The translations under genes were made by a program, and so were the position numbers. Below, piece after piece: positions 7,334-58,063 of a DNA stretch of 64,000 nucleotides; within the stretch, counting starts at the first letter, position 1; every line of letters begins with the position of its first letter. Under the pieces are notes generated by a model. That model saw nothing but the letters and a program-made list of their open reading frames with translations. It searched no databases and had not been told where the DNA came from. This stretch comes from a virus. The DNA is taken from the IMG/VR virus record IMGVR_UViG_3300027565_000001. The stretch is one strand, 5' to 3'.

Positions 7334-7361
7334 GTGTGCCGCCGCATGACGCGGCGAGGCG
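7334..7361 (-). repeat. GC-hairpin repeat, copy A
   Basis: gtgtgccgccgc-atgac-gcggcgaggcg, 29 nt upstream of the ATG at 7391. Confidence 0.85.
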
Positions 7362-7390
7362 CGCATTAACACGGGAACGGGGGTGAAAGC

Positions 7391-7816
7391 ATGGCATATA
7401 ATGGCGACGTGAACGCGATACTCAGTGCCCACATACGAGATTATTTCGCCAAGCGCTATGACGAGCAGATATACAAGGAACTGATGAAGCCAGCTTTGAC
7501 GTGCACCGCGGCAGTGGACTGGGGATCGCAAGGGAACATAACCCAGCAGATGTATACGGTGCCACAGATGTTCACGTTTGGCGCGCCATGGGTCGCAGCG
7601 CAGAAGCCGCGACAGCCTTCGCGAATAGGCTACGAAGGCTCCGGCCCGCAGAGCTTTGATACAGCCAGCCAATCCGACATCGCCAGCGCCGTCAAGATAC
7701 TCAGCGACAAGACCAGAGCAGCAGCGAAGCGCGGGGCGATCATGGCCGAGGCCGTGGGGGCAATGCAGACGGCATGGCGGTCGAATGGACGACCGCACTG
7801 TTTTGACATCGATTGA
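7391..7816 (+). CDS. hypothetical protein (141 aa)
   Basis: GGGGGTG lies 5 nt upstream of the ATG. GC looks lower than in the neighbouring genes. No family recognised. Confidence 0.6.
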   Translation: MAYNGDVNAILSAHIRDYFAKRYDEQIYKELMKPALTCTAAVDWGSQGNITQQMYTVPQMFTFGAPWVAAQKPRQPSRIGYEGSGPQSFDTASQSDIASAVKILSDKTRAAAKRGAIMAEAVGAMQTAWRSNGRPHCFDID

Positions 7817-7822
7817 CGTGCC

Positions 7823-8494
7823 GTGCCGCCCTCCGAAACAGCCGCCGTCAACTTCGCCAGTTCGACCAGCTCGGGCTGGAATGACGAACGAGAGGACATT
7901 CTCAAGAAGCTCTGGTCCGATGGCTTGAGCGCCTCCCAGATCGCCGGCCGGCTCGGCGGCGTCACCCGCAATGCCGTGATGGGCAAGGTGCATCGCTTGG
8001 GGCTCTCGGGGCGCGCAACCACGAACCGCATGGCGTCCCAGCGGCGCGTGCGCTCCTACCGCAGGCGCCGCATACGCCAGGGCATTGACTATCACCCTTG
8101 GCAACTGACACTCCCGCTCGACGAGCCCCAGTCACGCAACGACGACAACATCCTCCCATTCCCCAAGCAACCGTTTATCGACCGCATGGCGGAGGTCAAG
8201 GCCCCAGCTTCATTGAGAATGACCATCCTGGTCGAGAAGGATGGGGTGATGGTTGCCAACGACGAGTTCACGTCCAGAAACTGCAAATGGTCCACGGGGC
8301 GTGATCAGCGCGGGTTTCATGAATTTTGCGGCACGGATACGATTCCTGGAACGTCCTATTGCTACGCGCACCTCAAGGCATCACGCGACCCGCTGCCCCC
8401 ACGTCCCATATCGCTGCCGGGATTGATTTCTGGTACACTTCCCCGCGCCGCGCTCACGTATGGGCGTATTCTTGATCCCGAAGCGGCGGCCTGA
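7823..8494 (+). CDS. gcrA: GcrA-family cell-cycle regulator homologue
   Basis: WNDEREDILKKLWSDGLSASQIAGRLGGVTRNAVMGKVHRLGLSGR and C-terminal CKWSTG...FCG...YCYAH match the two conserved GcrA modules. Confidence 0.85.
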   Translation: MPPSETAAVNFASSTSSGWNDEREDILKKLWSDGLSASQIAGRLGGVTRNAVMGKVHRLGLSGRATTNRMASQRRVRSYRRRRIRQGIDYHPWQLTLPLDEPQSRNDDNILPFPKQPFIDRMAEVKAPASLRMTILVEKDGVMVANDEFTSRNCKWSTGRDQRGFHEFCGTDTIPGTSYCYAHLKASRDPLPPRPISLPGLISGTLPRAALTYGRILDPEAAA

Positions 8495-8515
8495 TCTGAT
8501 CGCACGGGGATACGC

Positions 8516-9994
8516 ATGCATTCGATTTCTGCCAGTTGGATGCGATATACGCTTGCCGGCTTCGGCATAGTGGTATCGCTGCTGGCGCTGGCCGCTTCCA
8601 TGAGCGCCAACGCCAAGTTCGGATATTCGCTTGGGGGCACACCCAGCGACGGCACCATCTACGCCGTGGTCTTTGCTGCCGCCGATGTCGGCATGGCACT
8701 GATGCCGTTCTTTTTCTTCGCCGCGTTGCGGAATCGCGAGTGGCTATTCGGGTTCATCACCCTTGCATTGTGGGTGCTCACGGTCGCCTTCGCCTTCTCC
8801 AATCTCCTCGGACATGCCAGCCTCAACCGGCTCAGCGTCGCCTCGCAGCGCACGGTGTCGGCAACAAACTACGAGGACGTGCGCACAGAACTAGCGGCCG
8901 CACGTCAGGAACGCGGCTTCATTCCGCAGCACCGCGATGAAGCCGTGGTCCGCGCCGAGATCACCAAGTACAAGATCAGCACGATGTGGAATGCCACCAG
9001 TGAATGCACGGAACTGGCCGGTGCTTCCGCACGCAAATACTGCGGCGGTTATGAAGTGCTGAACATAGAACTTGGCAATTCGCAACGCGCCAGCAAGGTG
9101 CAGGCACGCATCGATGCGTTGCAAGCGCGTAGCGATCGCGTTTCCGAGACGGGAGGAGCGAGCGTGCAATCCGAAGCGGATCCTCAGGCTTCCAGGCTGG
9201 CAAAGCTTTCCTTCGGTTATCTCAATGTCGAGCAGGCCCAATCGGTGCTGGTGGTCATGGTGGCGTCCCTGGTAATGGGCTTCGCCGGATTCGGTCCATA
9301 CGTCTCGACCAGCGTGTTGCGGCAGCGCAAGTCGCTGCTAATCGACATCACGCCATCGTCAGATAATCAGTTACCAACTAACTCCAAGTTGCCGCCACAA
9401 GGCGACCTCAAGGCCCTGGTAGACCAGTCGAAACAGGCTTTAGATGGGTCCAAAGGGGTCCAGAACCCGTCGCAACCCCCGCTCCCCTATCACATAATGG
9501 CACGGCTGGCCCGGCCACCCCATCCGGGGGCGGTTCCAGGGCTCAAGAAGATCGATTATCCCTTGGTCAAGCTCAAGGGCGAACTGCGCGAACCGCACGT
9601 CAAGCGCACCGGCTTCAAGGTCGCAGCGCAGAACTTCGCCGCCTGGCTGCAGGCATACGAATTGGCCGGCATCTACGAGCCAGCCCAAGTCGAGGCGCTG
9701 TACAAGATATTCGCCGAGATGGACCATCGCGAGGCCTGCCATACCAACATGCTGATGGGGAGCCTGAATGATCTCGGGCGTCGCTGCGGCGTCTACCGCA
9801 GGAGCATCAACGGCCTGAGGAAGTGGGTGGTGTCGCCCGGACGCTTTCCCACAGTGAAACCGGGCAAAGCCCAGCCAGCACTCGATAATGCGCAAACGAC
9901 AGCCCAGGCGCCGCAGGGCACACATAATCCCCCACCAGACGCAAATGCTGGCAGGGTAGTGCAGTTGCGCAGCAGATTCTGGAGGACCGCATGA
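8516..9994 (+). CDS. multi-pass membrane protein with coiled-coil and soluble C-terminal domain (492 aa)
   Basis: Four hydrophobic helices in the first ~110 aa, a coiled-coil with a Cys pair (SECTELAGASARKYC), a fifth helix VLVVMVASLVMGFAGFGPYV, then a ~220-aa soluble tail. Confidence 0.75.
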   Translation: MHSISASWMRYTLAGFGIVVSLLALAASMSANAKFGYSLGGTPSDGTIYAVVFAAADVGMALMPFFFFAALRNREWLFGFITLALWVLTVAFAFSNLLGHASLNRLSVASQRTVSATNYEDVRTELAAARQERGFIPQHRDEAVVRAEITKYKISTMWNATSECTELAGASARKYCGGYEVLNIELGNSQRASKVQARIDALQARSDRVSETGGASVQSEADPQASRLAKLSFGYLNVEQAQSVLVVMVASLVMGFAGFGPYVSTSVLRQRKSLLIDITPSSDNQLPTNSKLPPQGDLKALVDQSKQALDGSKGVQNPSQPPLPYHIMARLARPPHPGAVPGLKKIDYPLVKLKGELREPHVKRTGFKVAAQNFAAWLQAYELAGIYEPAQVEALYKIFAEMDHREACHTNMLMGSLNDLGRRCGVYRRSINGLRKWVVSPGRFPTVKPGKAQPALDNAQTTAQAPQGTHNPPPDANAGRVVQLRSRFWRTA

Positions 9995-10227
9995 TGAGCA
10001 ACGAAGCCGCGATCAGATTAGCCGAGGCGCTGGAGAAGCTCGCCCTAGCGATCGAAAGAGCGACCCCACCGAGCCTGATGGACAGGCTGCAGGTGCATGG
10101 GCATAATCCTTATCCCTATCCGCAGCCGCCGATATGGAATCCGCCTTGGCCATCGACCACGTGCGGCGCGGACTTGGTCAATACCACGGGCTGCTCCCAC
10201 AGCGGCGCTCCATCACGGATAAGGTAG
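9991..10227 (+). CDS. hypothetical protein (78 aa)
   Basis: ATGA start/stop overlap with the upstream gene, and abuts the next gene. Confidence 0.55.
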   Translation: MMSNEAAIRLAEALEKLALAIERATPPSLMDRLQVHGHNPYPYPQPPIWNPPWPSTTCGADLVNTTGCSHSGAPSRIR

Positions 10228-11358: not shown

Positions 11359-11807
11359 TCCGCTCCTCGCAGTATCGCTCCTTCAAGTACGGTTCCCGCG
11401 GACATAATAGGGACTTGGGTGCCGCCGCGACTTCGCGCGGCGCGGCGGTAATCACCGAGAGCGTGGTCACTGCGGATCGGCAGCGTGAGTGCCTCGATTA
11501 CATCAGGGGGCGCATAGCGGAAACCGCCGTTGCGCCCAGCTACGAGGAAATCAGGATCGCACTCAGGCTGCACTCCAAGTCCGGGGTGCACCGCCTCATC
11601 ATGGCACTGGAGAGGCGGGGGGAGATCAGGAGACTGGGGCATAGGGCAAGGGCGATAGAGGTCGTCAATCCACAGGCAAGAGAGCAGGTTTCCCCAGCAA
11701 AAGCCCCGGTCGCGAAGCCATTGCTGGACATTACGGGGGCGGCATTCTACGTCGTAGAGAAATCTCCAGGCGAGGATGCTAGGCTCGTGCCGATGGAGGC
11801 GAAATGA
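11355..11807 (+). CDS. LexA N-terminal DNA-binding-domain protein lacking the S24 peptidase domain
   Basis: [63 protein letters not shown] closely follows the alphaproteobacterial LexA winged-helix domain. No Ala-Gly/Ser/Lys cleavage module follows. Hairpin copy K lies in codons 22-32, so the true start may be the GTG at 11463. Confidence 0.75.
11419..11448 (-). repeat. GC-hairpin repeat, copy K
   Basis: gtgccgccgc-gacttcgc-gcggcgcggcgg, 14 nt upstream of the GTG at 11463. Confidence 0.75.
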
Positions 11808-14258: not shown

Positions 14259-14276
14259 GACATTGGGATTATAGGG

Positions 14277-14315
14277 ATGCCGCCGCAGCTTCGCGTAGCT
14301 CGCGCGGCGCGGCGG
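14277..14315 (-). repeat. GC-hairpin repeat, copy L (long loop)
   Basis: atgccgccgc-agcttcgcgtagctcgc-gcggcgcggcgg, 4 nt upstream of the ATG at 14320. Confidence 0.7.
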
Positions 14316-14897: not shown

Positions 14898-14927
14898 TCG
14901 AAGCGACGCACCATCCGCGAGGACGCA

Positions 14928-15485
14928 GTGCACCCAGATAACCTCGATTACGGCCCAGCCCTTTCCTACCTAGTCCTCCTCCTGAGCTGGATAATATTCA
15001 TCTGGTCCTACTGGAAGCAGGAGAAGGAGCTGGCCGTACTGAGGGGCAAGTGGCTGGAGGTGCCAGGGTCCGAGGTAGAAATCACAGAGGAGAACGACAT
15101 GGCCAAATACACCTACGCCGATCTCGCCGATAAACCCTTCGTGCCACCAACGGCCATCGAACCAACGGAGGAGATCGAAAAGGGCCGCCGGATCGTCAAC
15201 GATCTAGCCGCACGCAATCCAGAACTCGCGGCGAAACTCAGGGCGGCCGCGATCAGAACGGTCGCCGCCAAGCGCGGCCCGATCACCAGCACCGACGTGT
15301 GGGTGTATTTGCGTGATAATGATCCGACCACGATGGAGGCAGCCAAGAAGGTTGCCAACGGTCGAATTATGACTTCGGCATTCGACGGCCCCGCGTGGGA
15401 GAAAACGGGGCGGTATCTCCCGCAGGGCTCACACGGTAGGCCAGTTAGTGAATGGCGATACCGGCATGCGCTGGAGGCCGCGTGA
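14928..15485 (+). CDS. membrane-anchored hypothetical protein (185 aa)
   Basis: GTG start with GAGGA upstream. N-terminal hydrophobic helix LSYLVLLLSWIIFIWSYW. Confidence 0.6.
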   Translation: MHPDNLDYGPALSYLVLLLSWIIFIWSYWKQEKELAVLRGKWLEVPGSEVEITEENDMAKYTYADLADKPFVPPTAIEPTEEIEKGRRIVNDLAARNPELAAKLRAAAIRTVAAKRGPITSTDVWVYLRDNDPTTMEAAKKVANGRIMTSAFDGPAWEKTGRYLPQGSHGRPVSEWRYRHALEAA

Positions 15486-17504: not shown

Positions 17505-17533
17505 CCGCCACGCCGCTAAATGCGGCGGCACCC
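17505..17533 (+). repeat. GC-hairpin repeat, copy B
   Basis: ccgccacgccgc-taaa-tgcggcggcaccc, 7 nt after the methyltransferase stop. Confidence 0.85.
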
Positions 17534-17558
17534 AAACCCTACCCACCCCGGCCACCCC

Positions 17559-19996: not shown

Positions 19997-20491
19997 TGCA
20001 ACCGTCCCATTGGGTCACCCTCCTGCTCATCGGCATCGCCGCCCTCATGTTGGCGTGCCTGTGATCAGCCCTGTGATCTGGCTCCCGCATTATTCCCAAG
20101 CTGGGGCATTGGGCGCTCGCATCGCGCTGGCAAGGTTCAAGCTTGGGCGATGGTGGCGCAGCCCCGCGATTATGCTCGGCATGGAAGCTATGGCCGTGCG
20201 CGCGCTGACCGCCTGCCTCCTGCTGCGCCCTGAATAGGGAACGCCGCAGGGCACCCAAATATCACAATCCCCACCCGCAAAGCTCAAGGCGATGTGGCGC
20301 AAAAGCCCTCCACAGCGACATATCGCGCACACTTGCGCTGATGCAACGCGAGGCCCACAATCGTCCCGCATACAACAAGAACTAAGCGGGGGTTGGAATG
20401 CTTGAAATGATGTGGGTTGTCGTGGTCATTGCGGGGTCGGTGGGGATTGGTACGATTATAGCCCTGGTGATGGGGGCCTGATTATCTCCAG

Positions 20492-23723: not shown

Positions 23724-23972
23724 TTATCCCCTGCGTTTTGCCGCTGGCGGTTTGTCCGATTTGGGTGCCGCCGCAGCTTCGCCTTCGGCTGCGCGCGGCG
23801 CGGCGTCTTCTATCCGTGCGCGGATTTCCTCGATGGTCTCGACTGCGTAGAACACCTGCCCGTTGCCCATCCTGATCGTCGCCTTGCCGGCGCAGGAGCG
23901 GATTGAAGCGATCTGGGCGATGCCGAGATCGTAGTAGCCGTCCTCGGCGATGATGGTGATGAAGCCGCGCAT
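23724..23972 (-). CDS. hypothetical protein (82 aa)
   Basis: Start at MRGFITIIAEDGYY.... The first 17 codons of the track ORF are the translation of hairpin copy C. Confidence 0.55.
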   Translation of the reverse strand: MRGFITIIAEDGYYDLGIAQIASIRSCAGKATIRMGNGQVFYAVETIEEIRARIEDAAPRAAEGEAAAAPKSDKPPAAKRRG

Positions 23973-23993: not shown

Positions 23994-24021
23994 CGCCTCG
24001 CCGCTTAATGCGGCGGCACAC
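23994..24021 (+). repeat. GC-hairpin repeat, copy C
   Basis: cgcctcgccgc-ttaa-tgcggcggcacac, in the spacer between minus-strand genes. Confidence 0.85.
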
Positions 24022-24026
24022 AAGCA

Positions 24027-26247: not shown

Positions 26248-26514
26248 ATGACCATTGACCCCATCGCCTTCTCCCAAACCCAACTCGCACTCGCCATGAT
26301 GAGTAAGGACGCCACGCCGCCCAATGCGGCGGCACACAATGCCCCTAAATCCTACCGCTGGCTATCAAGTTTGATCACCTTCCTCATCTCCACTTGGGCA
26401 GGTAGTACTGCTGGGTCTGTGATGATGGTATTAGGTGCGGGGCCGGTCTGGATTATGCTCACTGCCGGGATCGTGACGCTGGGGATGCTGATGGGGATCC
26501 GAGTATCGGAATAG
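26248..26514 (+). CDS. membrane protein (88 aa) containing hairpin copy D in-frame
   Basis: AGGAGA lies upstream of the ATG. C-terminal half has two hydrophobic helices. Codons 21-30 (DATPPNAAAH) are the repeat. Confidence 0.5.
   Translation: MTIDPIAFSQTQLALAMMSKDATPPNAAAHNAPKSYRWLSSLITFLISTWAGSTAGSVMMVLGAGPVWIMLTAGIVTLGMLMGIRVSE
26310..26337 (+). repeat. GC-hairpin repeat, copy D
   Basis: cgccacgccgc-ccaa-tgcggcggcacac. The only copy inside a predicted ORF. Confidence 0.85.
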
Positions 26515-27864: not shown

Positions 27865-27894
27865 CGCCGCGCCGCACTTTATGCGGCGGCACCC
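27865..27894 (+). repeat. GC-hairpin repeat, copy E
   Basis: cgccgcgccgc-acttta-tgcggcggcaccc, 4 nt after the OMP stop. Confidence 0.85.
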
Positions 27895-27978
27895 ATAATC
27901 CATAATCACCGAGATCCGCAGCCGGCCGCTGACCGCTCTTCTCCTCAACCAGCACTAAAGGCCAGTTGCGGTGCCCCA

Positions 27979-28599: not shown

Positions 28600-28628
28600 C
28601 GCCACGCCGCACTTCATGCGGCGGCACC
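28600..28628 (+). repeat. GC-hairpin repeat, copy F
   Basis: cgccacgccgc-acttca-tgcggcggcacc, 11 nt after the stop at 28588. A 28-nt perfect inverted copy of H. Confidence 0.85.
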
Positions 28629-28645
28629 ATAATAAAGGCAGATCG

Positions 28646-28825: not shown

Positions 28826-28830
28826 GATTT

Positions 28831-28866
28831 GTGTGCCGCCGCAGCCCTGCGGGCGCGGCGTGGCGG
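28831..28866 (-). repeat. GC-hairpin repeat, copy G (long loop)
   Basis: gtgtgccgccgc-agccctgcgggc-gcggcgtggcgg, followed like copy H by t(t/c)ttca(a)caggagagg. Confidence 0.8.
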
Positions 28867-28898: not shown

Positions 28899-29873
28899 AT
28901 GATCGACCGCCGCAAGCTCATGCAGGTGCTGGGGCAGGTATTTGGCGCAGCGGCACTGATGCCACTCGCCGAACTGACGAAGGCTACCGCGTCACCAATT
29001 CCAGCGGTATTGCGTGCCATGGCTGCCGACATGCAGAAGACGGCAGACGCCTTCCGTGCAGGGGAAGCGCCTGAGCTGCTGGCCGGTACCTACGACAGGA
29101 TATTTCAGCATCGGCCATCGGAGCGTTCCATCGAGCAGACGGTGCATGTCGCGTATTTCGCCGACCCTGATCACTCCGGCCAACGCTTCCTCTACCAAAG
29201 CGAGCTCGCGGAATACGGATTGGGCTTTCTCGTCGTCAGGGACGACGATCCTCGCAAGACAATCGGCGGCGTTCCCGTTGCGCGCTTGGCGGATTTACCG
29301 CAGATGCTGCGCAGCCTCGCCATTTCCTTCCAGAGCATGCGTGAGATCCACGCGGCCGAACTGTTCGATAATGCCGATGTCTACGATGCTCACACCGTCG
29401 GCGATGGCGTCGCCATGTGCTCGCCGATGCATCCCTGCGATGGAGCCACTTGGGCCAATGCGCTGGCGACGCCGTGCGATCTTAACGGTCATTCCCTGCG
29501 CCATGTCCTGGAGCAGATACGCACGACCTTCGTCGATCAGCGCGGCTTGCGTATCAGCGCACGCGGCCGGCGCCTCGTCGTGCCGCTGGCCATCGCCTAT
29601 GACGCTGAGCGCGCTATCGCTCAGCTGAAAGCTGACGATCCCTTCAATACGTTCCGGTTCGATTATGAACCGGTCGTCTGGGATTACTTGACCAAGGAAC
29701 ACCGATGGTTCGTCCTGACGACTTGCCAGGGCTTCCATTGGTTCGAGCGCGAGCCGTTCTCCGTTGCCTGCGATGTGGATGTGAACAAGGATTGCGTGCA
29801 CGTCATAGGCCATGAGAAGCGCGCCTTCGCTTGTCATGATCCACGTGCGGTCTTTATGAGTGCCGCCGCATGA
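28899..29873 (+). CDS. major-capsid-protein paralogue with N-terminal Tat-like signal peptide (324 aa)
   Basis: The C-terminal ~190 aa align with the bona fide capsid protein at 63409..64000 (TVGDGVAMCSPMHPCDGAT / IVGDGKALYDTGHPVDGST; HRWFVLTTCQGFHWFEREPF / YAWFVLTKNDGLVFFERDAY). N-terminus is MIDRRKLMQVLGQVFGAAALMPLAELTKATA/S. Confidence 0.8.
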   Translation: MIDRRKLMQVLGQVFGAAALMPLAELTKATASPIPAVLRAMAADMQKTADAFRAGEAPELLAGTYDRIFQHRPSERSIEQTVHVAYFADPDHSGQRFLYQSELAEYGLGFLVVRDDDPRKTIGGVPVARLADLPQMLRSLAISFQSMREIHAAELFDNADVYDAHTVGDGVAMCSPMHPCDGATWANALATPCDLNGHSLRHVLEQIRTTFVDQRGLRISARGRRLVVPLAIAYDAERAIAQLKADDPFNTFRFDYEPVVWDYLTKEHRWFVLTTCQGFHWFEREPFSVACDVDVNKDCVHVIGHEKRAFACHDPRAVFMSAAA

Positions 29874-29888
29874 AGTGCGGCGTGGCGG
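29860..29888 (-). repeat. GC-hairpin repeat, copy H
   Basis: gtgccgccgc-atgaagt-gcggcgtggcgg. It overlaps the stop of the capsid paralogue and lies 17 nt upstream of the ATG at 29906. Confidence 0.85.
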
Positions 29889-33409: not shown

Positions 33410-34840
33410 TCAGGATACCTTGGAGGGCAGGAACGGCGAGGACGCAGATAATGATTGGCCGGCGCCGCGCGGGAGATAACGGCCGTCTTTATGAGCGGAT
33501 ATCAATCCCCTTTCTATTCCGAACTTGACGCCGACGTAGGCCAGACCTCCCGTAAGTAAGACCCCGCCAAGAAAGAGCAGGAACGGATGCTGCGAGGCCA
33601 GATGCGATATTGCGCCGCCGTTGCCTTGGCTAGTATCGACGAACTGATTGGCGATGGCGAGGCCGCCTCCTCCGAGCGTTGTGCCGCCCCAAAACCAGTT
33701 CTTGAATGTTTTGATGCTGTCCGCTAAGCGGCTACCCTGGTCCGCCAGATCGTTGACCCTGGTGAACGACAAGTTCTCGAACGTGGGCCACATCGATGCC
33801 TTGGCGGGCTCGGGTTCGGGACTTTGTGTGCCCTGCGGCATTGCGGCAACGGTTGGAGGATTATCGGATACGTCGGCGCTATCGGCCCGTGCGGAGACGA
33901 CCGGCGCGGCGAGACTTTGCACCTCGGCGGCATCGCGCAGCGCATCCATGGTCTTCGCGTCGACCTTGCCCGTGCGCGGCAGTCCATGTGTTCCTTGGAA
34001 GGCTGTCATTGCGCGCGCGGTTTGCGTGCCGAACTGGCCATCGGCAGGGCCAGATAGAACGCCAGCCTTCTTAAGCAGCCGCTGCACCTCGACGACGGAG
34101 GCGCCGCGTGCGCCCAGGGTCAACTCATCGGTCAGTTCGATTGAGGGAGCCGGCACCGATGGAACCATGACGCCTGCGACCTCGGTTAGATGTGGCGGCC
34201 AAATCCGTTTCGCCCGAGCTAGGTGCGCCTCCACATCGCTGAGCCCGTTGGTACCCCCGTTGATCGCCCTCCGTACCGCTACAACGTCATCCCGGTCGGC
34301 CTTCTCGTTGCAGCGCTTTTCCTGCCATTCCAATAATGCGGCATGGATAGCATTGCGCGGCTCGGAGAGCTGATCGATAGGACAACCGATCTTGCCCGCA
34401 TAAGCTTCGTGCGCGGCTCTCCCGGTGATCTGTTCGATGCCGCATCCCCGGTATTTGAAACCGTCACCCTCTGCGGTATTGCCGAGCATATGCGCCATGC
34501 GTGGGCAGCCCAATCCATACACACGCTCGGCCAGCGCATAGGGATTATGCGCTAAGGTCGCCGCTTCTTCCTGGGTATGGATGCCCTTGTCGTGGAACAC
34601 CTCCAGTATCCTCTGGGCCGAATAGGACATGTCCTCCCAGAGTATGGTGAGGTTGGTTTCCCCGCACCACGTCGCGATCAGGTGGCACCAGCGCAGGTTG
34701 GATGTGATGCCGAACTGCTCCAGCAGATCGCCCGAGGTGGTGATCGCGCCGACATAGCCGTCCCACACCGCAGCCCTTGCAGGATTGGTCGGCCTGGGGA
34801 CGAGGATAGCCAGTTGCTGGCGCGTGATGAGGATGGGCAT
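33410..34840 (-). CDS. endolysin: GH19-like muramidase/chitinase domain, PG-binding domain and C-terminal hydrophobic segments
   Basis: WCGETN...LGNTAEGDGFKYRGCGIEQITGRAAH (GH19-like). LGARGASVVEVQRLLKKAGVLSGPADGQFGTQTARAMTAFQGTHGLPRTGKVD (PG_binding_1-like). C-terminal FWGGTTLGGGGLAIANQFV and FLLFLGGVLLTGGLAYVGV. Confidence 0.85.
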   Translation of the reverse strand: MPILITRQQLAILVPRPTNPARAAVWDGYVGAITTSGDLLEQFGITSNLRWCHLIATWCGETNLTILWEDMSYSAQRILEVFHDKGIHTQEEAATLAHNPYALAERVYGLGCPRMAHMLGNTAEGDGFKYRGCGIEQITGRAAHEAYAGKIGCPIDQLSEPRNAIHAALLEWQEKRCNEKADRDDVVAVRRAINGGTNGLSDVEAHLARAKRIWPPHLTEVAGVMVPSVPAPSIELTDELTLGARGASVVEVQRLLKKAGVLSGPADGQFGTQTARAMTAFQGTHGLPRTGKVDAKTMDALRDAAEVQSLAAPVVSARADSADVSDNPPTVAAMPQGTQSPEPEPAKASMWPTFENLSFTRVNDLADQGSRLADSIKTFKNWFWGGTTLGGGGLAIANQFVDTSQGNGGAISHLASQHPFLLFLGGVLLTGGLAYVGVKFGIERGLISAHKDGRYLPRGAGQSLSASSPFLPSKVS

Positions 34841-39259: not shown

Positions 39260-41205
39260 CAGGGCGTTCCAGCCTTTGGCTTCCACTCGTCAATATTTGG
39301 TGGTGCCACGCCATTGGTGCGCTGCGTATGCAGGCGCATGAGATTCTGCTGATGCGTGAGCATAGCCTGGTCGCGAGCGCGGCTGGCGGCCTCCATCTCC
39401 TGCCGATAGGTCGGCGAGCCGGGCACCGCCACGGACTGCATTAGGTTGATCTGATCAAGCCGCGACTGGAACTGCTTGTTCTCCGCCTCGACCGCCTGCG
39501 TATAAATCAACGACGGCTCGGTCTTTGCCTTCAAGGCTTCGATCTCAGTCGGGTTCTTGGCTGCCTCAAGTCCGTAGGTCTTGGCGGCGATCGTCGGCGT
39601 CATCACGCCGTTGATCGGCACTTGTCCCGTGGCGATCTGCGCAGTTTGCGCCAGTTGCTGCGCCTGTAACGTAGGCTGTCCCTGTATGGTCCGCCCAAGC
39701 ATCCCCTCCCGCTCTCTCAGCAGGTTGGCGTTCGCCATGTTCCCTTCGGCTACTCCATGCGTGAATCCTGCAACCCCCGGTATGCCTGAGTTGCCGCCGA
39801 TGGTCAGCAGTGCGTTGGTGAATGGGCTAATGCCGTAGCCCTTGAGGATGTCCTGGTAGTTGCTACTCGGACTGCTATTGGGTGCCGCCGCATTGGGCGG
39901 CGCGGCGTCTGAATCATCGCCATTTCCGACCTTGGCCAATCCGCCATCCTCATAGCCTATTCGTCCCCCGCTTGCGGCGCGTCCCTGTAGTAGCGGGCTG
40001 TTGCGCGATAGTGCTGCGGCCATCATCGGGCCGAGCACGTCAAGCGACGGATTGTTCGTCGGCAGAGATGCGGAGGGTGTACTGGAAGCGCCGGCCTGGG
40101 GCGAGGCCGGCGGCGTGGTCAGGGTCTTGTTGAGGGCCTCCAGATTCTGCAGGAACGGGTTCTTGCCGGTATCGGCGTTTGCCGGATTGGCCATGGTCAC
40201 GGTTGGCATCCAGCTCCCCATCCCCACGTCCCCGCCGCCCTCGAAGCCAGGCTTTTTGCCGCCATCGGTTTCGGCATGCTTTCGCAGCTTGTGAAACGTG
40301 TGGAAGGCGTCCTCGACCTTCGATGCGAATGATCCATGCGCACTAGGGGCACCGACAGGACCACCATCCGCCTTGCCTACGCGCCCGGCAAGCAGACCAT
40401 CGCTCACTGCACCTCCATCCTTAAACAGACCTCCAAGCCAGCTTCCCGCTCCTTGGCCCAATCCGCCGAGCCACTGGAACGGGGTCTGCCCACCCGGAGA
40501 CATCGGGCTCATTCCCAGTCCCAGCAACCCAGCTCCAACGCTCATCATCGAGGGGTTATAGGTCGTCTGCCCCGTCATGTCCGAGGTGCCGGTGTTAAAG
40601 GTGCTCCCGGTGCTCTGACCCTGCTGGCCATATTGGCGCTGGTTGGTTGCGCCGGAAGTGGAGATCAGCCCCGGCATCGCCCCCAGGAATCCGGTGCCGG
40701 CAGAGTTTATGCCCATGCCGGCTCTAGCTAGAGCAGCTTGATTCGACTCGGCCACGGGTATCCCCGAGTTCCACGCATTGGTCATTATGCCTTGGGCAAG
40801 GTTGCCCATGTTTGCATTGACCGTGCCATAATACCGGGACAACGCTCCATCGTCGCTGCTGCCCCAGGGATTGGCGGCCATCGACCCGCGTATTGAGGAT
40901 GCCTGGTCCTGGATGCCCGGCTGCATCGCCGCCGCCGCTGCCTGGAACTCCTGCCCGGCCATAGGATAGGCCAATCGGCCGATATCCGCCGAGGTCACGG
41001 GCGCGGCGGACGAGGTCAGCAGCGGATTACCAGCCAGCGCTTCATTGACGTTGTTGGCGCCATATGTTCCCAACCATTGCAGGAACGGGGTTGAGGTATC
41101 GGTGCCCGTCCCTTGGACGCCCTGCGTCCCCGAGGATGTGCCCCGGTTGGTGGTATTGGTCGTCTGCTGCTGCTGGGTATTGCCGGAACAGAATGAGCCC
41201 ATCAC
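39259..41205 (-). CDS. Gly/Gln/Ser/Thr-rich virion-associated protein (648 aa)
   Basis: Low-complexity N-half and helical C-terminus. Contains x-GG-x-[VI] motifs shared with 41790..45410. Confidence 0.75.
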   Translation of the reverse strand: MMGSFCSGNTQQQQTTNTTNRGTSSGTQGVQGTGTDTSTPFLQWLGTYGANNVNEALAGNPLLTSSAAPVTSADIGRLAYPMAGQEFQAAAAAMQPGIQDQASSIRGSMAANPWGSSDDGALSRYYGTVNANMGNLAQGIMTNAWNSGIPVAESNQAALARAGMGINSAGTGFLGAMPGLISTSGATNQRQYGQQGQSTGSTFNTGTSDMTGQTTYNPSMMSVGAGLLGLGMSPMSPGGQTPFQWLGGLGQGAGSWLGGLFKDGGAVSDGLLAGRVGKADGGPVGAPSAHGSFASKVEDAFHTFHKLRKHAETDGGKKPGFEGGGDVGMGSWMPTVTMANPANADTGKNPFLQNLEALNKTLTTPPASPQAGASSTPSASLPTNNPSLDVLGPMMAAALSRNSPLLQGRAASGGRIGYEDGGLAKVGNGDDSDAAPPNAAAPNSSPSSNYQDILKGYGISPFTNALLTIGGNSGIPGVAGFTHGVAEGNMANANLLREREGMLGRTIQGQPTLQAQQLAQTAQIATGQVPINGVMTPTIAAKTYGLEAAKNPTEIEALKAKTEPSLIYTQAVEAENKQFQSRLDQINLMQSVAVPGSPTYRQEMEAASRARDQAMLTHQQNLMRLHTQRTNGVAPPNIDEWKPKAGTP

Positions 41206-41789: not shown

Positions 41790-44700
41790 TCACTTCGCAG
41801 GCGACGGGAGTTGGCTGAGCGTGCGGATGTGATCGGCGCGGATCTGCTTCACCATCTGGTCCAGCATGGCGTGGCCGCGGTCGATATTACCCCCGCCGTA
41901 CTTGGCGACTGCCTCTGGGGAGACCGTGAACTCTCCTGCCGAGATCTTGATAGGCACGGCACCACCAGCGGCTCTTGTGGGCTGCGACTTGCCGAACATC
42001 TTCTCCAGGATCTTCATTCCCGCAAGCGTGTTGTTGCCGGCCCCGGGCATTCCCGATACGGCATCCGCTGGGACGATGTATGAGCCCGAGGCGACGTTGA
42101 CAGGGAGGGCATCATCGCGCCCCCCCGATGGGCCTATAACCGGCCCGACATGTACTCGGCCCCCCTTGGCATAATGCCTAGCCAGATCCAGCGCCTTCCT
42201 TATTGCTCCCCCCCTGGCCATGGCGTCTGGGTTGAAGTCTCCCCCTGGTGGCCTATCCGGTTTCTTGGGTACGCCAGGGGCGATCTCGTCAATATCTTCC
42301 GGCGTTCGCGCTCCGTTCGGCTTACCTTTTGTTGACGATTGTGCATTAGTCTTGCCCTTGGTAGGCGGTTCGCCCTTGCCCTTGACATAATCCTCAGGGG
42401 CCATGCGGCCCTTGACGACATCGTCGGGCATGAACTTGCCGGCCATGGGGTGGCCTTCAGGCCAATGCTTGGTACCGGCCGCACTGGTCGTTGGGACAAG
42501 AAGCGGCTTACTGGTTGGTGACGAAGATGGCGCAGGCAGAGCACGTTGACTGGACTCGCCTGAGGGCGGAAGCGGTGGACCTGCCGCCGCCCGATAGTCT
42601 GGGAGACGCTCGGCCAATCGCGAGCGCGCCAACGCCATCAAGGGAGGCTCGATTGCTGGCCCGTTGGCAGCGCCGGGAGCAAGAACTGCGGGCAAGGTTC
42701 CAAGCCCATGAGCAGTCCCTGAAAACCCGCTTCCTTCGCCACTCGCTGCAGCTTCGTCAGCGTCTAAACCAAACCTCTTGACAAGTGCCTGCGTCTCAGG
42801 TGCTGGGCGCCTGCCCGGTCCCGCAGTTGGGAAGAGATGCGGCGTCGCCCATCCGGTCAGCGCCCCGAGACCGCCAAACGTTTTGGCCGCCTCGAACATG
42901 TCCTGCGGCGTGCCCAGAACCCGCACGGCCTCCTGATGCTCTTTGGAGTCTGCGGGAGCATTTGCCTTGTTGAACTGATACGGGAACAGGGAGGCCTCCG
43001 TCCCCGCCGCCGCACCGGCCAATGCCGGCGCCGCGTGGTCGCGCATGATGTCCGAGACGGTGCGCATCAGCGGGCCGTGTTCTTGCTCCAGATAGCCCTG
43101 TGCCGTCTTGGTCGCGTGCTCGGCTAATGGAAGATTGGGCTCTCCCCTTCTCGGAAAGAGGTTCGTCTCTGCCGTGTCGACCGCCCTGTTCCACGGAGCT
43201 CGCCCGGCCCTCTCCGCCAAGTTGCCGAAGTTCTTGGCGAGATAGCCGGCAGCCATGGGCGCGAGAACTTGCACCGCCGGCCATGCGGCAGCAGCATCGG
43301 GGTGCGCGGTTGCCCATGGGAGGCTGCCCTTGGTGATGGTCGCTAGGCGCTCATTGTATTGACCTAAGAGCTTGCTGGCCTCTGCTGCTGCTCGAATGCG
43401 ATTGGATTGAACCTGAGTGCCAGGTTCGGCATGCGCGATCTTATTTTGCTCATCGATCTGTCGCTGCAGTGATTGCAGCGTGGGATCATTCAGTTCGATG
43501 TCGGACTTCCTGCGCGCGAGCGCGCCCGAGGGTGTTTCCTGCACGGTGCCGGGGACTTTAGTCGGCACGGCATGCGCCCCCAGCGCCTGCTCTTCAAAGG
43601 GCGCTACGGCTCCGGCACTTGCAATCAGTGGCATCGCCGCCTTTGGCAGATAGCGATTGGCGTAGGTGGCGGCGAGCGGGCCTGCGGTTGTTGCGAGGGA
43701 TTTCAGGGTATCCAGCTGCTTCTCCCCTTCGCTCATGCCGGCGCGGCGCGCGGCGTTGGCTTCAAGATCGCGTCTGGATTCCTCAATGCCTTCATGCAGT
43801 CCTGGATAGTTGTATCCCGGTATCGGTGGCGCGATGGTGCGCAGGATATCCTTGAGGATTTCAGGATCGAAGTGACCGCCCATCAAGTTGGGATCTTCGT
43901 CACGGATAGGGCTTTCGTTACGCGCCTTGGCCCTATCGACCTCCGCCGCCGCCGTATCGCTGCCGATGCCTCCGCTCGCCAATCCCTTGCGTCCCTTTCC
44001 GTCCTTATCAGTCTGCTTGTACTGCCCCGCCAGTATCAGTCCTTCTGCTATGTGGTTGGCTAGACGTTGGTGGGGGTCGTCGTCGACCGATCCCCCGGAG
44101 GCGCGACCCTGGTTGGGCAGGTTGAACGGGTTAGAGGATATCCCGGCAGGCATGGATGAGCTCTGCTGCATCCAGGGCGGGGTGGAATTGGGATAACCGG
44201 GGCTGGGTTGGGTTTGGCCCAGTAATGTACCGGGTGCAGGGCCGAAGTAGTTCTGCGGTTGTGCTGGCGTAGGCATCGGCGGGGCCGGGGCAGGGCCGAA
44301 ATAGTTGCGCGGCTGTGGTGATACTGGCCCAGACATTGGCCCAGACACTGGCATGGATACTGGCCCAACCTGTGTCCCTATCCCCGGTGCCGCTTGCATT
44401 GGCGGTATTTGTGTGCCCTGCGGCATTACCGTTGGCGATGGAGACGAACTCGGGGCTGGGGGGAGAATTGCACCCGGTGGCGGCGGGGACGCAGTGGACC
44501 CAAAGCCGGTATTAACCGGAGGTGCCCCGGGTTGATTCGGCAACGGCGCCCCCCCAAAGCCGGTGCTGGCAATACCGAGGCTCGGGCCAGTAATCGACGG
44601 CGGCGCGGGCGGCAGCATGGACCCAGGACCAGCTGGAGGGCTTTGCGACTGCAGGCCGAATCCCGACTGCATCACGGGAGGCTGTCCGCCGAGGGCCATA

Positions 44701-54588: not shown

Positions 54589-55341
54589 TCAGGTCAAGTT
54601 GATACTCAACGCCAACGCATCGAACTGCACCGGAGCCCCAACCGTTATCGACGGGGGCGGCCCTACCACGCTCAGCACACCACTCGTCAATAACGCCCCC
54701 CCGCTCGCCGCATTATACAGCCCCGCGTAGTTGATGTTAATAGCGCTCAACGAGGACGCAGTGACCACAATAGGCGATGTATTCGTGGCGATGGTCTGCG
54801 TGGTTATCGTGGTGGTGAGCTGCGAGGCAATGTTGGTGCGTGTAGCCGACCCGGTAATCGCCGCCAGCACGGAAACCCCCGCACTCCCCGTCGGGTTGCC
54901 GTTGAACAGGTCTAGGAACACAGAAGCAACCGACCCAAGATGGTACTTCATCGCACATGCCAGATGCACGGTTAGCGGCGAATCGTCTGGGTTGCGTGGT
55001 TCAGGGGTGATGAGATCCAGCCCGGACTCGGTGGTGATGATCGAGCCGTCTTGGGTGATCAAAAACGATGCCTCGTCCAAAGTGTAATTTTCCGGTCGGG
55101 CGTTATAGATCGGCAACGGATCCGGTGGCAGGATGACGGGCGAGTCCTGGGGATTTAGCGGGTCGATGTGCTTGGGACAAACCAGGAAGCGCGTGTTTTG
55201 CGGGGTCGTGGTGCCGCGATAGGAATACTGCCAGCGCAGTTGATGGAGTGGCCACTGGAAGCCGCAACAATCCGCCGCCGCCCAAGCCCGGGGATTGTCG
55301 GAATCGACTTCCGTGTTCTTGGGGTGATAGCGGTAGGCCAT
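54589..55341 (-). CDS. structural-module protein (250 aa)
   Basis: ORF between the fibre gene and the GIY-YIG gene. No family recognised. Confidence 0.7.
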   Translation of the reverse strand: MAYRYHPKNTEVDSDNPRAWAAADCCGFQWPLHQLRWQYSYRGTTTPQNTRFLVCPKHIDPLNPQDSPVILPPDPLPIYNARPENYTLDEASFLITQDGSIITTESGLDLITPEPRNPDDSPLTVHLACAMKYHLGSVASVFLDLFNGNPTGSAGVSVLAAITGSATRTNIASQLTTTITTQTIATNTSPIVVTASSLSAININYAGLYNAASGGALLTSGVLSVVGPPPSITVGAPVQFDALALSINLT

Positions 55342-55344: not shown

Positions 55345-56457
55345 TCATGCCTCCTGAAGGAAGTCTTCAAGGAAGCGAAAATGAAGGCCAGCACAGCGCC
55401 CGTTCCTATAGATGGCCGCAGAAACCAATGATGTCGTTTTGCCGCAAGCGCGCGCTGCATCACCAATGCTATCAAACACAGTGCCAGACTCAATACAAAT
55501 GACCTTCTTTCGTTGTTTAGCCCACGTTCGTACCCAACCGGACATACGCCGCTCCTTGATGGCGGCAAGTTCTTCTGCGCTCTTGACAGGTCTCACGTAA
55601 GCTGGCTTGTCCGCATATCTAAAGCGCAGCCCGCTGACTGTAGTGGCGCCGTTTCTGCAGCACTGCACAACAGTCATCTGCGCAAGTTTATAGTGTTTTG
55701 CTGCGGCTCTGCCGCTCGGATAAGCCTTCCCATCAGTGATGCATACGACTGGTCGCGACCTAGATAGACGGAGCTTCTCTACGCGTGCTCCCAGACGTGC
55801 CTTGCGTTCTTCCATGATCGTATTGCATTGTTCAAGCGTCAGGGGCTTCGCAGCGTGTGCAAAGAAAAGACCGTTAGCACTCACCTCGCGACCGCTGCAA
55901 GAACTGCAGATACGACTGCAAGATACGCCGTAGGCAGCGACAGCTAGCTTTATGCCCTCAAACCAGCGCCCATCGTTCAGACATACGACCGGCCGGAAGT
56001 TCAGCTTCATTGCGGCCCTGGTCGCTAGCGTCTTGCGTCGCTGTTCGGCCGTCCACTTACGGCCTCTCATTAGAGGAATTTGCTTCCTGCGCCTTTCCTC
56101 TGTCCATGCCGCCCGAAGCGCCTTGGCCATGTAGGCGTGACGTTCTGGAGTCCACTTTGCGCCGTTTGGCGCATACTTGCCGAGCAGGATGTTGTACGCT
56201 GGCCTCAGCGTCGCAATGTAATGGCGTTCGCGATCTGCGGCCTCTCGTTCGGAGAGGCCGTCCTCAAGTACCGAGAACTCGAATGCATCGCCGCCGTATT
56301 TCTTAATCGCTTTGCCAAAGATGAGCGCATTGGCAATTCCCTTTGGCGAAGTGGCACTCCAGATGTGCATATAGGCGCGGCGTTCCAATGAAGTCCGCGT
56401 AGCGCCGATGTATAGCTTCCCGTTCACCTTGTTGCGGGCCACATAGACCAAAGCCAT
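55345..56457 (-). CDS. GIY-YIG homing endonuclease with three NUMOD/IENR-like DNA-binding repeats
   Basis: MALVYVARNKVNGKLYIGATRTSLERR...EREAADRERHYI...YNI (GIY-YIG core), then 3x V(V/I)C(L/I)xxGxx(F/Y)...GL(F/R)F(R/A). GC looks lower than in the flanks. Confidence 0.8.
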   Translation of the reverse strand: MALVYVARNKVNGKLYIGATRTSLERRAYMHIWSATSPKGIANALIFGKAIKKYGGDAFEFSVLEDGLSEREAADRERHYIATLRPAYNILLGKYAPNGAKWTPERHAYMAKALRAAWTEERRRKQIPLMRGRKWTAEQRRKTLATRAAMKLNFRPVVCLNDGRWFEGIKLAVAAYGVSCSRICSSCSGREVSANGLFFAHAAKPLTLEQCNTIMEERKARLGARVEKLRLSRSRPVVCITDGKAYPSGRAAAKHYKLAQMTVVQCCRNGATTVSGLRFRYADKPAYVRPVKSAEELAAIKERRMSGWVRTWAKQRKKVICIESGTVFDSIGDAARACGKTTSLVSAAIYRNGRCAGLHFRFLEDFLQEA

Positions 56458-57124: not shown

Positions 57125-57197
57125 GAGATTCGACGTTGGGGGATTGAAGTTGTACGTCGAGGTGGTCGCGATGACACGCCCCTCCCGCTATCCCGCC

Positions 57198-57503
57198 CTA
57201 CGCACTCGCCCTTGGCGCTTCGTCGTGGCCGTTCGCTACCGGGGGGATTATCTGTGCGTCCTCCGCATCCTTGGCCGGCTTGGGGGGCAGCGGCGCCATC
57301 TTCTCGGCCGCCGCCAGCTTGCCCTCCAGCTCCGCTATCTTCTTGTCCTTTTCCTCCCCGGCCCTGCGTAATGCCTTGAACATCGCCTCCAGCTTGACAA
57401 TGCCGTTGTTGGCCTGGTCCCTCTGGCCCACCAGGGTTTCAACGATGTCGTTGTGCTCCTGCTGAATGGTCTTGATCTGGGCCTGCATCTCGGGTTCTGT
57501 CAT
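57198..57503 (-). CDS. coiled-coil protein (101 aa)
   Basis: Heptad-like charged sequence and a Pro/Ala-rich tail. Confidence 0.6.
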   Translation of the reverse strand: MTEPEMQAQIKTIQQEHNDIVETLVGQRDQANNGIVKLEAMFKALRRAGEEKDKKIAELEGKLAAAEKMAPLPPKPAKDAEDAQIIPPVANGHDEAPRASA

Positions 57504-57619
57504 GACGGCGAAGCGCCCTTTCTGTCTGGCTGTGGTCTACGCGGATTATACGCTACAGAAGAGATGGTCACCATCCCTATCGACGAGGACGCAGTGCACA
57601 CAATTCACCTTGAGATAAT

Positions 57620-57649
57620 GTGTGCCGCCGCATTAGAGCGGCGAGGCGG
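57620..57649 (-). repeat. GC-hairpin repeat, copy I
   Basis: gtgtgccgccgc-attaga-gcggcgaggcgg, 3 nt beyond the stop of 57653..58021. Confidence 0.85.
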
Positions 57650-57652
57650 TGG

Positions 57653-58021
57653 TTAACTCACCGTCCCCGCCGGCAGCGACCCCTTAGACTGCAGATAACC
57701 ATATGCTGCGGTTTTAATAGCAGCGTATATGCTCGCTCCTTTAGGCGCAGCGGTCATCAATGCCGTCATATCGGTAACGGCTGGCACTGCAGGAGTGATA
57801 ACCGTCTTGCCGTCAGGAGACATGACAGCGGCTACTGCGGGCTTGTCCTGGATGGTCGCGGCGTAATTCACAAGTGCGTTTGACGACGCATCAAAGCCGC
57901 TGAACTGGATGACCGCGGTAGGCGATCCCACGGCAGGAATGCTGATAAGGATGGAAGTGATCTGCCAATTGATGGGGGTACCTAGAGAGATTGCTTGGGG
58001 AGTAGTCGGGGTGAGGGGCAT
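57653..58021 (-). CDS. structural-module protein (122 aa)
   Basis: ORF flanked on both sides by hairpin repeats I and J. Confidence 0.65.
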   Translation of the reverse strand: MPLTPTTPQAISLGTPINWQITSILISIPAVGSPTAVIQFSGFDASSNALVNYAATIQDKPAVAAVMSPDGKTVITPAVPAVTDMTALMTAAPKGASIYAAIKTAAYGYLQSKGSLPAGTVS

Positions 58022-58034
58022 GGGTTATCCTTTG

Positions 58035-58063
58035 GTGTGCCGCCGCATTGAGCGGCGAGGCGG
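58035..58063 (-). repeat. GC-hairpin repeat, copy J
   Basis: gtgtgccgccgc-attga-gcggcgaggcgg, 14 nt beyond the stop of 58078..59889. Confidence 0.85.

Follow-up and report, generated by a model that had tools for sequence, protein, structure and literature searches.

A REP-like palindromic repeat family private to a metagenome-assembled phage

What is a GC-rich hairpin that recurs between the genes of a phage, with one conserved asymmetry and in both orientations, and how could it have multiplied there? The window, i.e., the whole 64,000-nt stretch of IMG/VR virus record IMGVR_UViG_3300027565_000001 that was analyzed, carries such an element. It is part of a metagenome-assembled phage of approximately 104.8 kb that is represented by circularly permuted contigs of 104,801 and 104,887 bp; joining of the loci gave 98.4 kb of the phage genome, and the genome-wide counts presented here refer to these approximately 98 kb. 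A preliminary description of the window had listed 12 copies of the hairpin (A to L), all of which are real and have the coordinates and sequences given there. The list was incomplete, as two further copies in the window (M and N) had been missed, and with two copies from the part of this genome beyond the window (X1 and X2), the family has 16 members in approximately 98 kb, 14 of them in the window. We read the family as a phage-resident palindromic repeat, similar to the repetitive extragenic palindromes (REPs) and MITEs (miniature inverted-repeat transposable elements), that spread by copy-paste and whose transcribed hairpins punctuate polycistronic mRNA; this reading is tentative, with a rough probability of 0.45.

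The core pattern CGCCGC-N3-18-GCGGCG is found 16 times in the window against an expectation of 1.07, and none of 100 shuffled sequences reached 16. A covariance model (R1) was built on the structure of the repeat and used to scan the window and other loci; it scored the 14 window copies at 38-55 bits, and the next best match scored 17 bits. No copies were found in the 15.6 kb flanking the window. Copies with identical loops lie far apart (D and N, X2 and J, F and H), and spread by local duplication was rejected, with similarity unlinked to proximity (Mantel p = 0.95). The exact 28-nt inverted pair formed by F and H, the region of the ribosome-binding site (RBS) that G and H have in common downstream, and the crowding of five copies within 3.6 kb, all of which had been pointed out previously, were verified.

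The unit takes the form TTTG(T/G)G-TGCC-GCCGC-loop-GCGGC-G-N-GGCG(G), and the copies are 31-46 nt long; head and stem-loop together make up a unit of 35-45 nt. The hairpin had been described as a 6-bp stem with non-complementary flanks; the alignment instead shows a TTTG(T/G)G head and a stem of nine pairs (one T.G and eight Watson-Crick pairs) broken by a fixed 2-nt bulge (G,N) in the 3' arm. The proposal that the copies are orientation-specific is correct: the element is an imperfect GC-rich palindrome with an asymmetric head and bulge. The head is GTGT, GGGT, GAGT, GGAT, or TGGT after TTT or TTA, 19 core positions are invariant, and the information content falls sharply beyond positions -6 and approximately +2 of the unit. 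Pairing is complete in all 144 pair cells (nine pairs in 16 copies); eight of the pairs are invariant, and the ninth has a compensatory change from C-G to G-C in copy X2. As a result, Pro and Ala trade places in the encoded peptide (two amino acid changes), i.e., pairing is retained at the expense of the protein. The loop is 4-20 nt long (4-7 nt in 12 of the 16 copies), and the long loops are themselves structured according to folding predictions. Perfect pairing, a compensatory stem change, unconstrained loop length, and structure in the long loops show that selection acts on the hairpin as a fold and not as a dimer site. As RNA, the copies have predicted folding energies of -14 to -29 kcal/mol, and as single-stranded DNA of -9 to -11 kcal/mol; the GUGU-first RNA strand, which gains G.U pairs, is more stable (-17 to -29 kcal/mol).

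The copies in the window, with their scores in model R1 where noted, are as follows.
Copy A, 7331..7361, plus strand: loop ATGAC and bulge A; 47.9 bits; GTGT-first in the mRNA; in a 547-nt gap, 29 nt upstream of the start at 7391.
Copy K, 11414..11447, plus strand: extended loop GACTTCGC; 47.3 bits; 58 nt past the stop at 11358; the probable GTG start of the LexA-like gene follows after 16 nt.
Copy L, 14272..14314, plus strand: 17-nt structured loop; 37.9 bits; -29 kcal/mol; 16 nt past a stop; the ATG at 14320 follows after 5 nt.
Copy B, 17506..17536, minus strand: 54.6 bits; 8 nt past the stop of the DNA methyltransferase gene; antisense to transcription.
Copy M, 23760..23805, plus strand: 20-nt structured loop; 41.8 bits; read through near the C-terminus of open reading frame (ORF) 23724-24023(-) as DAAPRAAEGEAAAAP.
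Copy C, 23994..24024, minus strand: 49 bits; sense to transcription; 5 nt past the stop of gene 24027-24350(-) and upstream of the likely ATG of the next gene.
Copy D, 26310..26340, minus strand: 49.1 bits; read in frame as DATPPNAAAH near the N-terminus of ORF 26248-26514(+).
Copy E, 27865..27897, minus strand: 4 nt past the stop of the outer-membrane beta-barrel gene (27147-27860).
Copy F, 28600..28632, minus strand: 11 nt past the stop at 28588; exact 28-nt inverted match to H.
Copy G, 28828..28865, plus strand: 50.3 bits; 5 nt past the stop at 28825; loop with a nested GCCCTGCGGGC mini-hairpin like that of the short sites described below.
Copy H, 29855..29887, plus strand: 50.2 bits; overlaps the TGA of gene 28899-29873; 18 nt before the GapR-like gene.
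Copy N, 39877..39907, plus strand: 47.6 bits; inside the 647-aa ORF 39259-41202(-), read as DAAPPNAAAP in a variable low-complexity linker.
Copy I, 57617..57648, plus strand: 50.7 bits; 4 nt past the stop of the 122-aa gene 57653-58021(-); antisense.
Copy J, 58032..58062, plus strand: 52.7 bits; antisense to transcription; located between the tail-fibre-like 603-aa gene, whose stop is 15 nt away, and the next start, which is 13 nt away.

Non-coding DNA makes up 10.6% of the sequence, and the centers of 10 of the 16 copies lie in it (P = 8e-7, with the gene calls of the public contigs); the count rises to 11-12 of 16 once the ORF starts around C and K are corrected. Copy K is probably not a coding copy because the LexA-like domain begins just past it. 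Copy-holding spacers are 32-149 nt long, and, except for A and K, every intergenic copy begins at most 16 nt past the upstream stop (H overlaps it), whichever its orientation. Seven copies are transcribed GTGT-first (A, K, L, C, G, H, and X1) and nine CCGCC-first (B, M, D, E, F, N, I, J, and X2). The even split of orientations relative to transcription in the preliminary description (6:6) is correct for the 12 copies it listed and becomes 7:9 for all 16. Its division into a stop-associated and a start-associated orientation class mostly dissolves, with both orientations sitting just past stops; the start-associated class is mostly an artefact because the distance to the next start reflects the short length of the spacers.

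Four CCGCC-first copies, D, M, N, and X2, are located within called ORFs and have one reading frame in common, which gives an Ala/Pro-rich peptide resembling D-A-[AT]-P-P-N-A-A-A-[HP]; the in-frame read-through of D had been noticed before and was verified. Remote homologues of the protein that bears copy N match only its N- and C-terminal blocks, and the linker with the copy is unalignable, a pattern consistent with an insertion of N into a variable linker. Apart from the GapR-like gene, the genes adjoining the copies are ORFans. A single small accessory gene precedes each of the copies E, F, G, and H (the outer-membrane beta-barrel gene and the 205-aa, 59-aa, and 324-aa ORFans, respectively), and the pairs M/C and J/I each bracket one small gene. 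Searches with the 603-aa, 324-aa, and 647-aa window proteins found no usable relatives; the 603-aa protein is a mosaic tail-fibre protein. The sequence CGAGGACGCAGTGCAC is present in three copies (14918-14933, 54751-54763, and 57584-57599), the third of which is approximately 20 nt from copy I.

Given the strong sigma70-like promoter sites at 20492 and 24617, copies D-H belong to a single operon, and no sigma70-like promoter was found adjoining any copy. Neither strand of any copy is followed by a U-tract, no intact copy was called terminator-like, and the sole overlapping terminator call (23788-23804) covers only the 3' arm of copy M. On the basis of these scans, a U-tailed intrinsic terminator and a promoter-linked element were both rejected. 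Rfam 15 gave no matches in the window.

The same genome contains two further sets of hairpin structures. In five short sites, the main element's head and lower stem are retained, but only a 4-bp mini-hairpin with a tetraloop is formed (TGTGTGCC-CTGC-GGCR). None of the five is transcribed GUGU-first, and four lie in the window, where none is expected:
9909..9930, minus strand: GGATTATGTGTGCC-CTGC-GGCG, inside ORF 8516-9994.
20242..20255, minus strand: intergenic; 17.4-bit match to model R1.
33825..33841, plus strand: inside the endolysin-like ORF 33410-34840(-).
44410..44426, plus strand: inside the 1206-aa ORF 41790-45410(-).
The last of these ORFs encodes a virion protein with a lysozyme-like N-terminus, and the gene has tandem or near-tandem repeats with periods of approximately 12 and 54 nt at 44233-44378.

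The second set is a family of long bulged hairpins (family 2; CCTAAC..CCGCTAA-loop-TTAGCGAGCGGGTTAGG, with the consensus CCTAAC-N-CCGCT(A/T)A-loop-T(T/A)AGCGAGCGGG(T/C)TAGG). Its five copies are found outside the window, in the larger spacers between early-region genes, at the following positions in the frame of the window and in locus L197 of the same genome:
approximately -24461 (L197, 19470): family 2 copy.
approximately -21194 (L197, 16200): family 2 copy.
approximately -16588 (L197, 11600): family 2 copy.
approximately -14844 (L197, 9860): family 2 copy.
approximately -11940 (L197, 6950): family 2 copy.
The ends of family 2 (CCTAAC...GTTAGG) resemble the R''/R' cores of integron attC sites. 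One copy is located upstream of the gene for the RlaP-HD protein, which served as the marker protein in this study.

No close relative of the phage was found among cultured phages or in IMG/VR. Its genes include those for a capsid protein, a small terminase, a tail-fibre-like protein, an endolysin-like protein, RecT/Gp157, and a large DNA methyltransferase, and it encodes four homologues of host regulators and nucleoid proteins as well as an inserted transposase:
15452-17497: 681-aa DNA methyltransferase.
7823-8494: GcrA-like protein.
11464-11807: LexA-like protein with a LexA DNA-binding domain.
29906-30202: GapR-like protein.
L197, 6276-6749: H-NS-like protein.
Window 1-258 and upstream (locus L191, 10411-11364): IS1595-family DDE transposase of an inserted insertion sequence (IS).
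The methyltransferase and the regulator and nucleoid homologues suggest manipulation of the cell cycle and nucleoid of an alphaproteobacterial host. The nearest cultured homologues of the marker protein are in Erythrobacter and Caulobacter phages, and the nearest DNA relatives of the IS1595 copy are on Mesorhizobium, Bradyrhizobium, and Roseomonas plasmids. From these homologues and relatives and from the GcrA-, GapR-, H-NS-, and LexA-like genes, the host probably belongs to the Alphaproteobacteria. A serine recombinase is also encoded in the phage genome. Free-standing GIY-YIG and HNH endonuclease genes lie in the structural module (window 55345-56457 and locus L001 3992-4504, i.e., approximately 65386-65898 in the frame of the window) and probably encode homing endonucleases. 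Approximately ten early genes (-10837 to -2781 in the same frame; L191 and L197) have conserved translation-initiation contexts, CAACTGAAAGGAGAAC and CGAAAGGCCGCGCC-ATG, which recall the start-associated sequences of some mycobacteriophages.

Whether the element belongs to the phage or is an ordinary host REP was a question raised by the preliminary description. For database scans, we used a strict 22-base pattern that is satisfied by 9 of the 12 originally listed copies. It gave 34 matches in 185,579 species genomes (596 Gb), all in GC-rich contexts and all singletons except in one alphaproteobacterial metagenome-assembled genome (MAG), and no species representative contains two or more independent copies. 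The seven matches in that MAG were rejected as a REP family; they are one IS-like sequence in seven copies because their flanks are identical. Metagenomes of the Joint Genome Institute (JGI) yielded 34 singleton matches to the strict pattern, i.e., the chance level, and matches in cultured phages were likewise at chance level. In IMG/VR, the strict pattern matched only this genome's own fragment, and a loose-pattern scan gave chance singletons only, among the matches listed. One IMG/VR contig (L156), which carries copies X1 and X2 and had seemed to be a second element-bearing phage, was rejected as such because it has no mismatches over 12.7 kb and its marker protein is on the 104,887-bp contig; it is a piece of the same genome. 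The element is therefore phage-specific, and a dense scatter over host chromosomes was not found.

Four relatives (L198, L199, L200, and L202) were found via the RlaP-HD marker protein at 70-79% identity. The element was found neither in these loci nor in 80 further viral loci that share the marker (1.17 Mb). Two of the relatives have hairpin families of their own at gene junctions, both with asymmetric flanks. That of L198 is TGCGAAT..TTCGTAAAG-N5-TTAACGATA, and its copies are nearly all sense and abut a Shine-Dalgarno sequence. That of L199 is CGTAA-CGTCCTCTAA-N6-TTAGAGGACG-GGGTTAG, includes a compensatory variant, and is similar in sequence to family 2. At the junction upstream of the RlaP-HD gene, where our phage has a family 2 copy, L198 and L199 carry copies of their own families. 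No hairpin family was found in the 17-18 kb seen of L200 and L202. Two other features of these relatives were observed, namely release-factor-like ORFs (PCRF and RF-1 domains), apparently split in two, in L199 (11843-12508), and a cluster of tRNA-like repeats with T-arm-like GGTTCAAnTCC motifs in L198 (20680-21530), which suggests a tRNA gene array.

A search for a transposase of the REP-associated tyrosine transposase (RAYT) type had been advised. In the 98 kb seen, Pfam annotation of the called genes revealed no Y1/HUH gene. An origin of the element as a MITE of the resident IS1595 copy was also rejected; the ends of the IS are unrelated, and its flanks contain no similar sequence. On the other hand, a divergent Cre/Xer-like tyrosine recombinase of 436 aa, with weak matches only, is encoded next to the marker gene, and a counterpart is present in both relatives that have hairpin families:
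L197, 8048-9358: tyrosine recombinase of this genome, outside the window.
L198, 18326-19657: tyrosine recombinase.
L199, 17824-19107: tyrosine recombinase.
It was not seen in the sampled parts of L200 and L202, which show no family. The recombinase of L199 is 55% identical and that of L198 38% identical to that of our phage, which parallels the similarity of the hairpin families. Across three phages, these sequences constitute a weak link between recombinase and hairpin.

We consider spread as a REP- or MITE-like palindrome to account best for this set of observations. Sharp boundaries, identical loops in distant copies, a single benign coding frame, ORFan neighbors, and co-existing and patchy families are hallmarks of selfish palindromes such as REPs, the Rickettsia palindromic elements (RPEs), and MITEs, and the patchy, fast-turnover distribution across relatives is typical of mobile DNA. 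Strict conservation of stem, bulge, and head combined with mixed orientation implies that the asymmetry is read in the DNA or during copying and not in the mRNA. The copies would have multiplied within one phage genome via hairpin-targeted transposition, recombination, or gene conversion, and may have persisted where they were least harmful, namely, in short post-stop spacers and, in a few cases, in frame within disordered stretches of proteins. Because every copy is located in an operon of the host RNA polymerase type, each should be transcribed; the RNA of either orientation is predicted to fold into a stable stem-loop. Such stem-loops could punctuate the mRNA as a barrier to 3'-exonucleases with differential stability of the segments, by pausing or partial termination, or by uncoupling of translation at the stop, and the copies might double as 30-40-nt homology patches for the exchange of ORFan genes. 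The analysis establishes membership of the family, its placement, the lack of promoter and terminator features, and, solidly, its anatomy and restriction to this genome. Mobility and an RNA-level effect are what we infer here; a REP-like effect on mRNA appears most likely because the copies are transcribed as hairpins of -14 to -29 kcal/mol directly past stops.

Several points weigh against this reading. A mobilizing enzyme was not found in the 98 kb seen, with no Y1/HUH gene and, as the only transposase, an IS1595 type with unrelated ends. Presence/absence polymorphism, target-site duplication, and an empty site were not demonstrated: no direct repeats flank the copies, the sister-strain contigs examined are identical, and the intergenic DNA is unalignable in an empty-site comparison of copy A with L200. 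The near-invariant stem with free loops fits protein recognition at least as well as neutral copy-paste, and a generic RNA hairpin needs no conserved asymmetry of head and bulge. The sense copies abutting Shine-Dalgarno sequences in L198 moreover hint at a dedicated expression function for families of this kind.

The first of these structural points leads to the alternative that survives best, which we hold to be possible although unlikely: the copies could be DNA-level recognition sites (duplex, extruded, or single-stranded hairpin) for a phage-encoded protein specific for sequence and structure. Candidate partners are a nicking or homing endonuclease, a recombinase, a primase-loading factor, a nucleoid or packaging factor, and a repressor. 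The sites would co-evolve with the protein, and their location in spacers would reflect only the difficulty of encoding a 30-nt GC palindrome. Such a partner would explain why the 19 core positions, the position of the bulge, and the head are invariant over 16 copies while the loops are free. The short sites keep the head and lower stem without the upper stem, which points to the 5' head and the hairpin base as the parts that are recognized. Mixed orientation relative to transcription is no problem for a DNA site. Different families in related phages are as protein-site co-evolution predicts, and a Cre/Xer-like recombinase is present in all three family-bearing phages, with family 2 resembling the family of L199, which has the closer recombinase; GIY-YIG and HNH nucleases and the serine recombinase are also encoded. 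However, no partner protein has been identified, and the link to the recombinase concerns three genomes with partial loci. The variable spacing of the arms excludes a classical dimer-on-duplex operator or recombinase core site, sites on both strands argue against one-strand nick systems, and the lack of a family in the 17-18 kb of L200 and L202 would be odd for an essential genome-wide signal.

Rather improbable in our estimation is a more specific proposal, drawn from the same recombinase comparison, in which the hairpin families would be substrates of a phage enzyme that recognizes folded DNA (the Cre/Xer-like recombinase or an unrecognized nuclease being candidates), so that enzyme and hairpins would form a phage-autonomous system that moves or exchanges small genes or propagates the hairpins themselves, with the sites of each phage co-evolving with its enzyme. 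That system would be distinct from RAYT/REP, IS200/IS605, and integrons.

The bracketing of small genes bears on another alternative, which takes up the cassette boundaries and recombination hot spots suggested in the preliminary description and in which the copies would be cassette linkers like integron attC sites or the promoter-early stem-loops (PeSLs) of T4-like phages, and accessory ORFans would be inserted, excised, or inverted via folds read by a recombinase or via homology patches. The single small accessory genes before E-H and between M/C and J/I fit this proposal, as does the tyrosine recombinase gene of the phage; attC sites owe their strand polarity to extrahelical bases, to which the fixed bulge corresponds, and PeSL stem-loops mediate such shuffling (PMC2839356, PMC4122927). 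We nevertheless judge it decidedly improbable. The main family has no RYYYAAC/GTTRRRY cores and approximately half the minimal attC length, its orientations are mixed and not uniform, no sigma70 promoter is attached as in PeSLs, and several copies are inside ORFs, including the 647-aa virion-module gene. A variant without a bracketed gene was not found.

A role of the copies as sequence-specific RNA elements in mRNA, i.e., translational operators, RNase processing sites, anti-termination (nut/put-like) sites, or terminators, is very unlikely. The RNA hairpins are stable, particularly as the GUGU-first strand, and the sense copies G, H, L, and C are 5-35 nt upstream of starts, with an RBS context common to G and H. 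Sense transcription as GUGU-first, however, applies to only 7 of the 16 copies and to none of the five short sites; no strand has a U-tract, no Rfam family matches, and RNase III needs longer stems than the 9-13 bp present here. The operator or processing role suggested in the preliminary description is disfavored because 9 of the 16 copies are transcribed as the opposite strand. Least likely of all, and hardly credible, is an ordinary REP family acquired from or shared with a still unsequenced alphaproteobacterial host: the regulator-like genes and the plasmid relatives of the IS1595 copy point to that class, in which transposase-less REP families with similar stems, loops, and intragenic copies are common (PMC3733652), but neither a GTAG nor a CGTC tag is consistently present, and both the 185,579 species representatives and the JGI contigs speak against it, as described above.

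Small palindromic repeats (REPs, RPEs, and MITEs) have so far been viewed as features of cellular chromosomes that are kept by domesticated host transposases. If spread as a phage-resident palindrome is the correct reading, such palindromes can live and turn over on viral genomes, here as 16 copies and their derivatives, with in-frame copies in virion-module genes, no counterpart in a sequenced host, and different families in sister phages. This lineage-wide, family-switching pattern of hairpins is unusual. With 16 sites in approximately 100 kb, the phage would be a compact system for testing how transposase-less families spread and whether they act as DNA or as RNA, and its hairpins mark the junctions of genes as well as ORFan cassettes and may influence recombination and the stability of mRNA in phage genomes.

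Among known systems, the stoperators and start-associated sequences of mycobacteriophages (Cluster A, Cluster K) are 13-bp duplex protein sites or RBS-linked motifs that have a single orientation and no hairpin. The phage element is similar to them in being a short, asymmetric, lineage-private motif with many copies in intergenic spacers of early and late operons; it differs in being a hairpin with a variable loop that occurs in both orientations. Like integron attC sites, it is an imperfect palindrome with bulged bases that distinguish the folded strands, a variable central loop, and a stop-to-start location. Unlike them, it has no R''/R' cores (RYYYAAC...GTTRRRY), is 31-46 nt long instead of 57-141 bp, and is not co-oriented, and no IntI-type integrase or attI/Pc platform accompanies it. 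With the PeSLs, it shares a phage-borne, multi-copy, conserved GC stem-loop in spacers beside ORFans, through which small gene cassettes could plausibly undergo homologous exchange. PeSLs are composites of approximately 100 bp that have a strong sigma70 promoter and act as terminators (PMC2839356, PMC4122927), whereas the phage hairpins have neither promoter nor U-tract, their orientations are mixed, and some copies are inside ORFs.

The preliminary description had likened the element to REPs and to bacterial interspersed mosaic elements (BIMEs). The likeness is sound with respect to anatomy and placement: a GC-rich imperfect palindrome of 20-40 nt with a short, unpaired, conserved head and an orientation-giving bulge, occupying short intra-operon spacers downstream of ORFs in either orientation, with loop-defined sub-families and occasional intragenic copies. 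Mechanistically, by analogy with REPs, the expected RNA-level effects would be mRNA stabilization or attenuation near stop codons. The likeness does not extend to the head, which is GTGT/GGGT and not a GTAG or CGTC tag. Two REP super-families have been described, which are defined by GTAG (GTRG/GYAG) or CGTC tags (PMC3733652). The phage element resides in a phage, has 16 copies as opposed to hundreds on a chromosome, is absent from sequenced bacterial species, and has no RAYT gene in the 98 kb seen; its copies are mostly singletons and not head-to-head or tail-to-tail dimers as in BIMEs.

Closer are the CGTC-tagged REPs, including RPE-4 and RPE-6 of Rickettsia (Di Nocera et al. 2013, PMC3733652). 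The CGTC-tagged REPs have a terminal CGTC (TGTC/CCTC) tag, A.T pairs at the first two stem positions, and a CCA tail, and transposase-less REP families of Alphaproteobacteria have 8-9-bp stems, 4-5-nt loops, and intragenic copies (PMC3733652). The phage element probably has the same host class, and it has in common with these elements an 8-9-bp stem, loops of mostly 4-7 nt, the lack of a dedicated transposase, rare clusters, and in-frame copies tolerated inside proteins; the selfish-palindrome behavior of its in-frame copies compares with that of RPEs and intragenic REPs (PMC3733652). It differs in that a CGTC tag is present in only 4 of the 16 copies (as GGCGTC in D, E, M, and N), the base of the stem is T.G/G-C with no A.T base pairs, there is no CCA tail, and the 2-nt bulge is fixed. 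The element lies outside both REP super-families by its tag, its abundance on chromosomes, and the lack of a RAYT gene, outside PeSLs by its lack of a promoter, and outside attC by its cores, length, and orientation. In its build and, by analogy, in its working, it resembles a REP, and most closely the transposase-less CGTC-type REPs and RPEs of Alphaproteobacteria; it is a new, phage-private REP-like palindromic repeat family.

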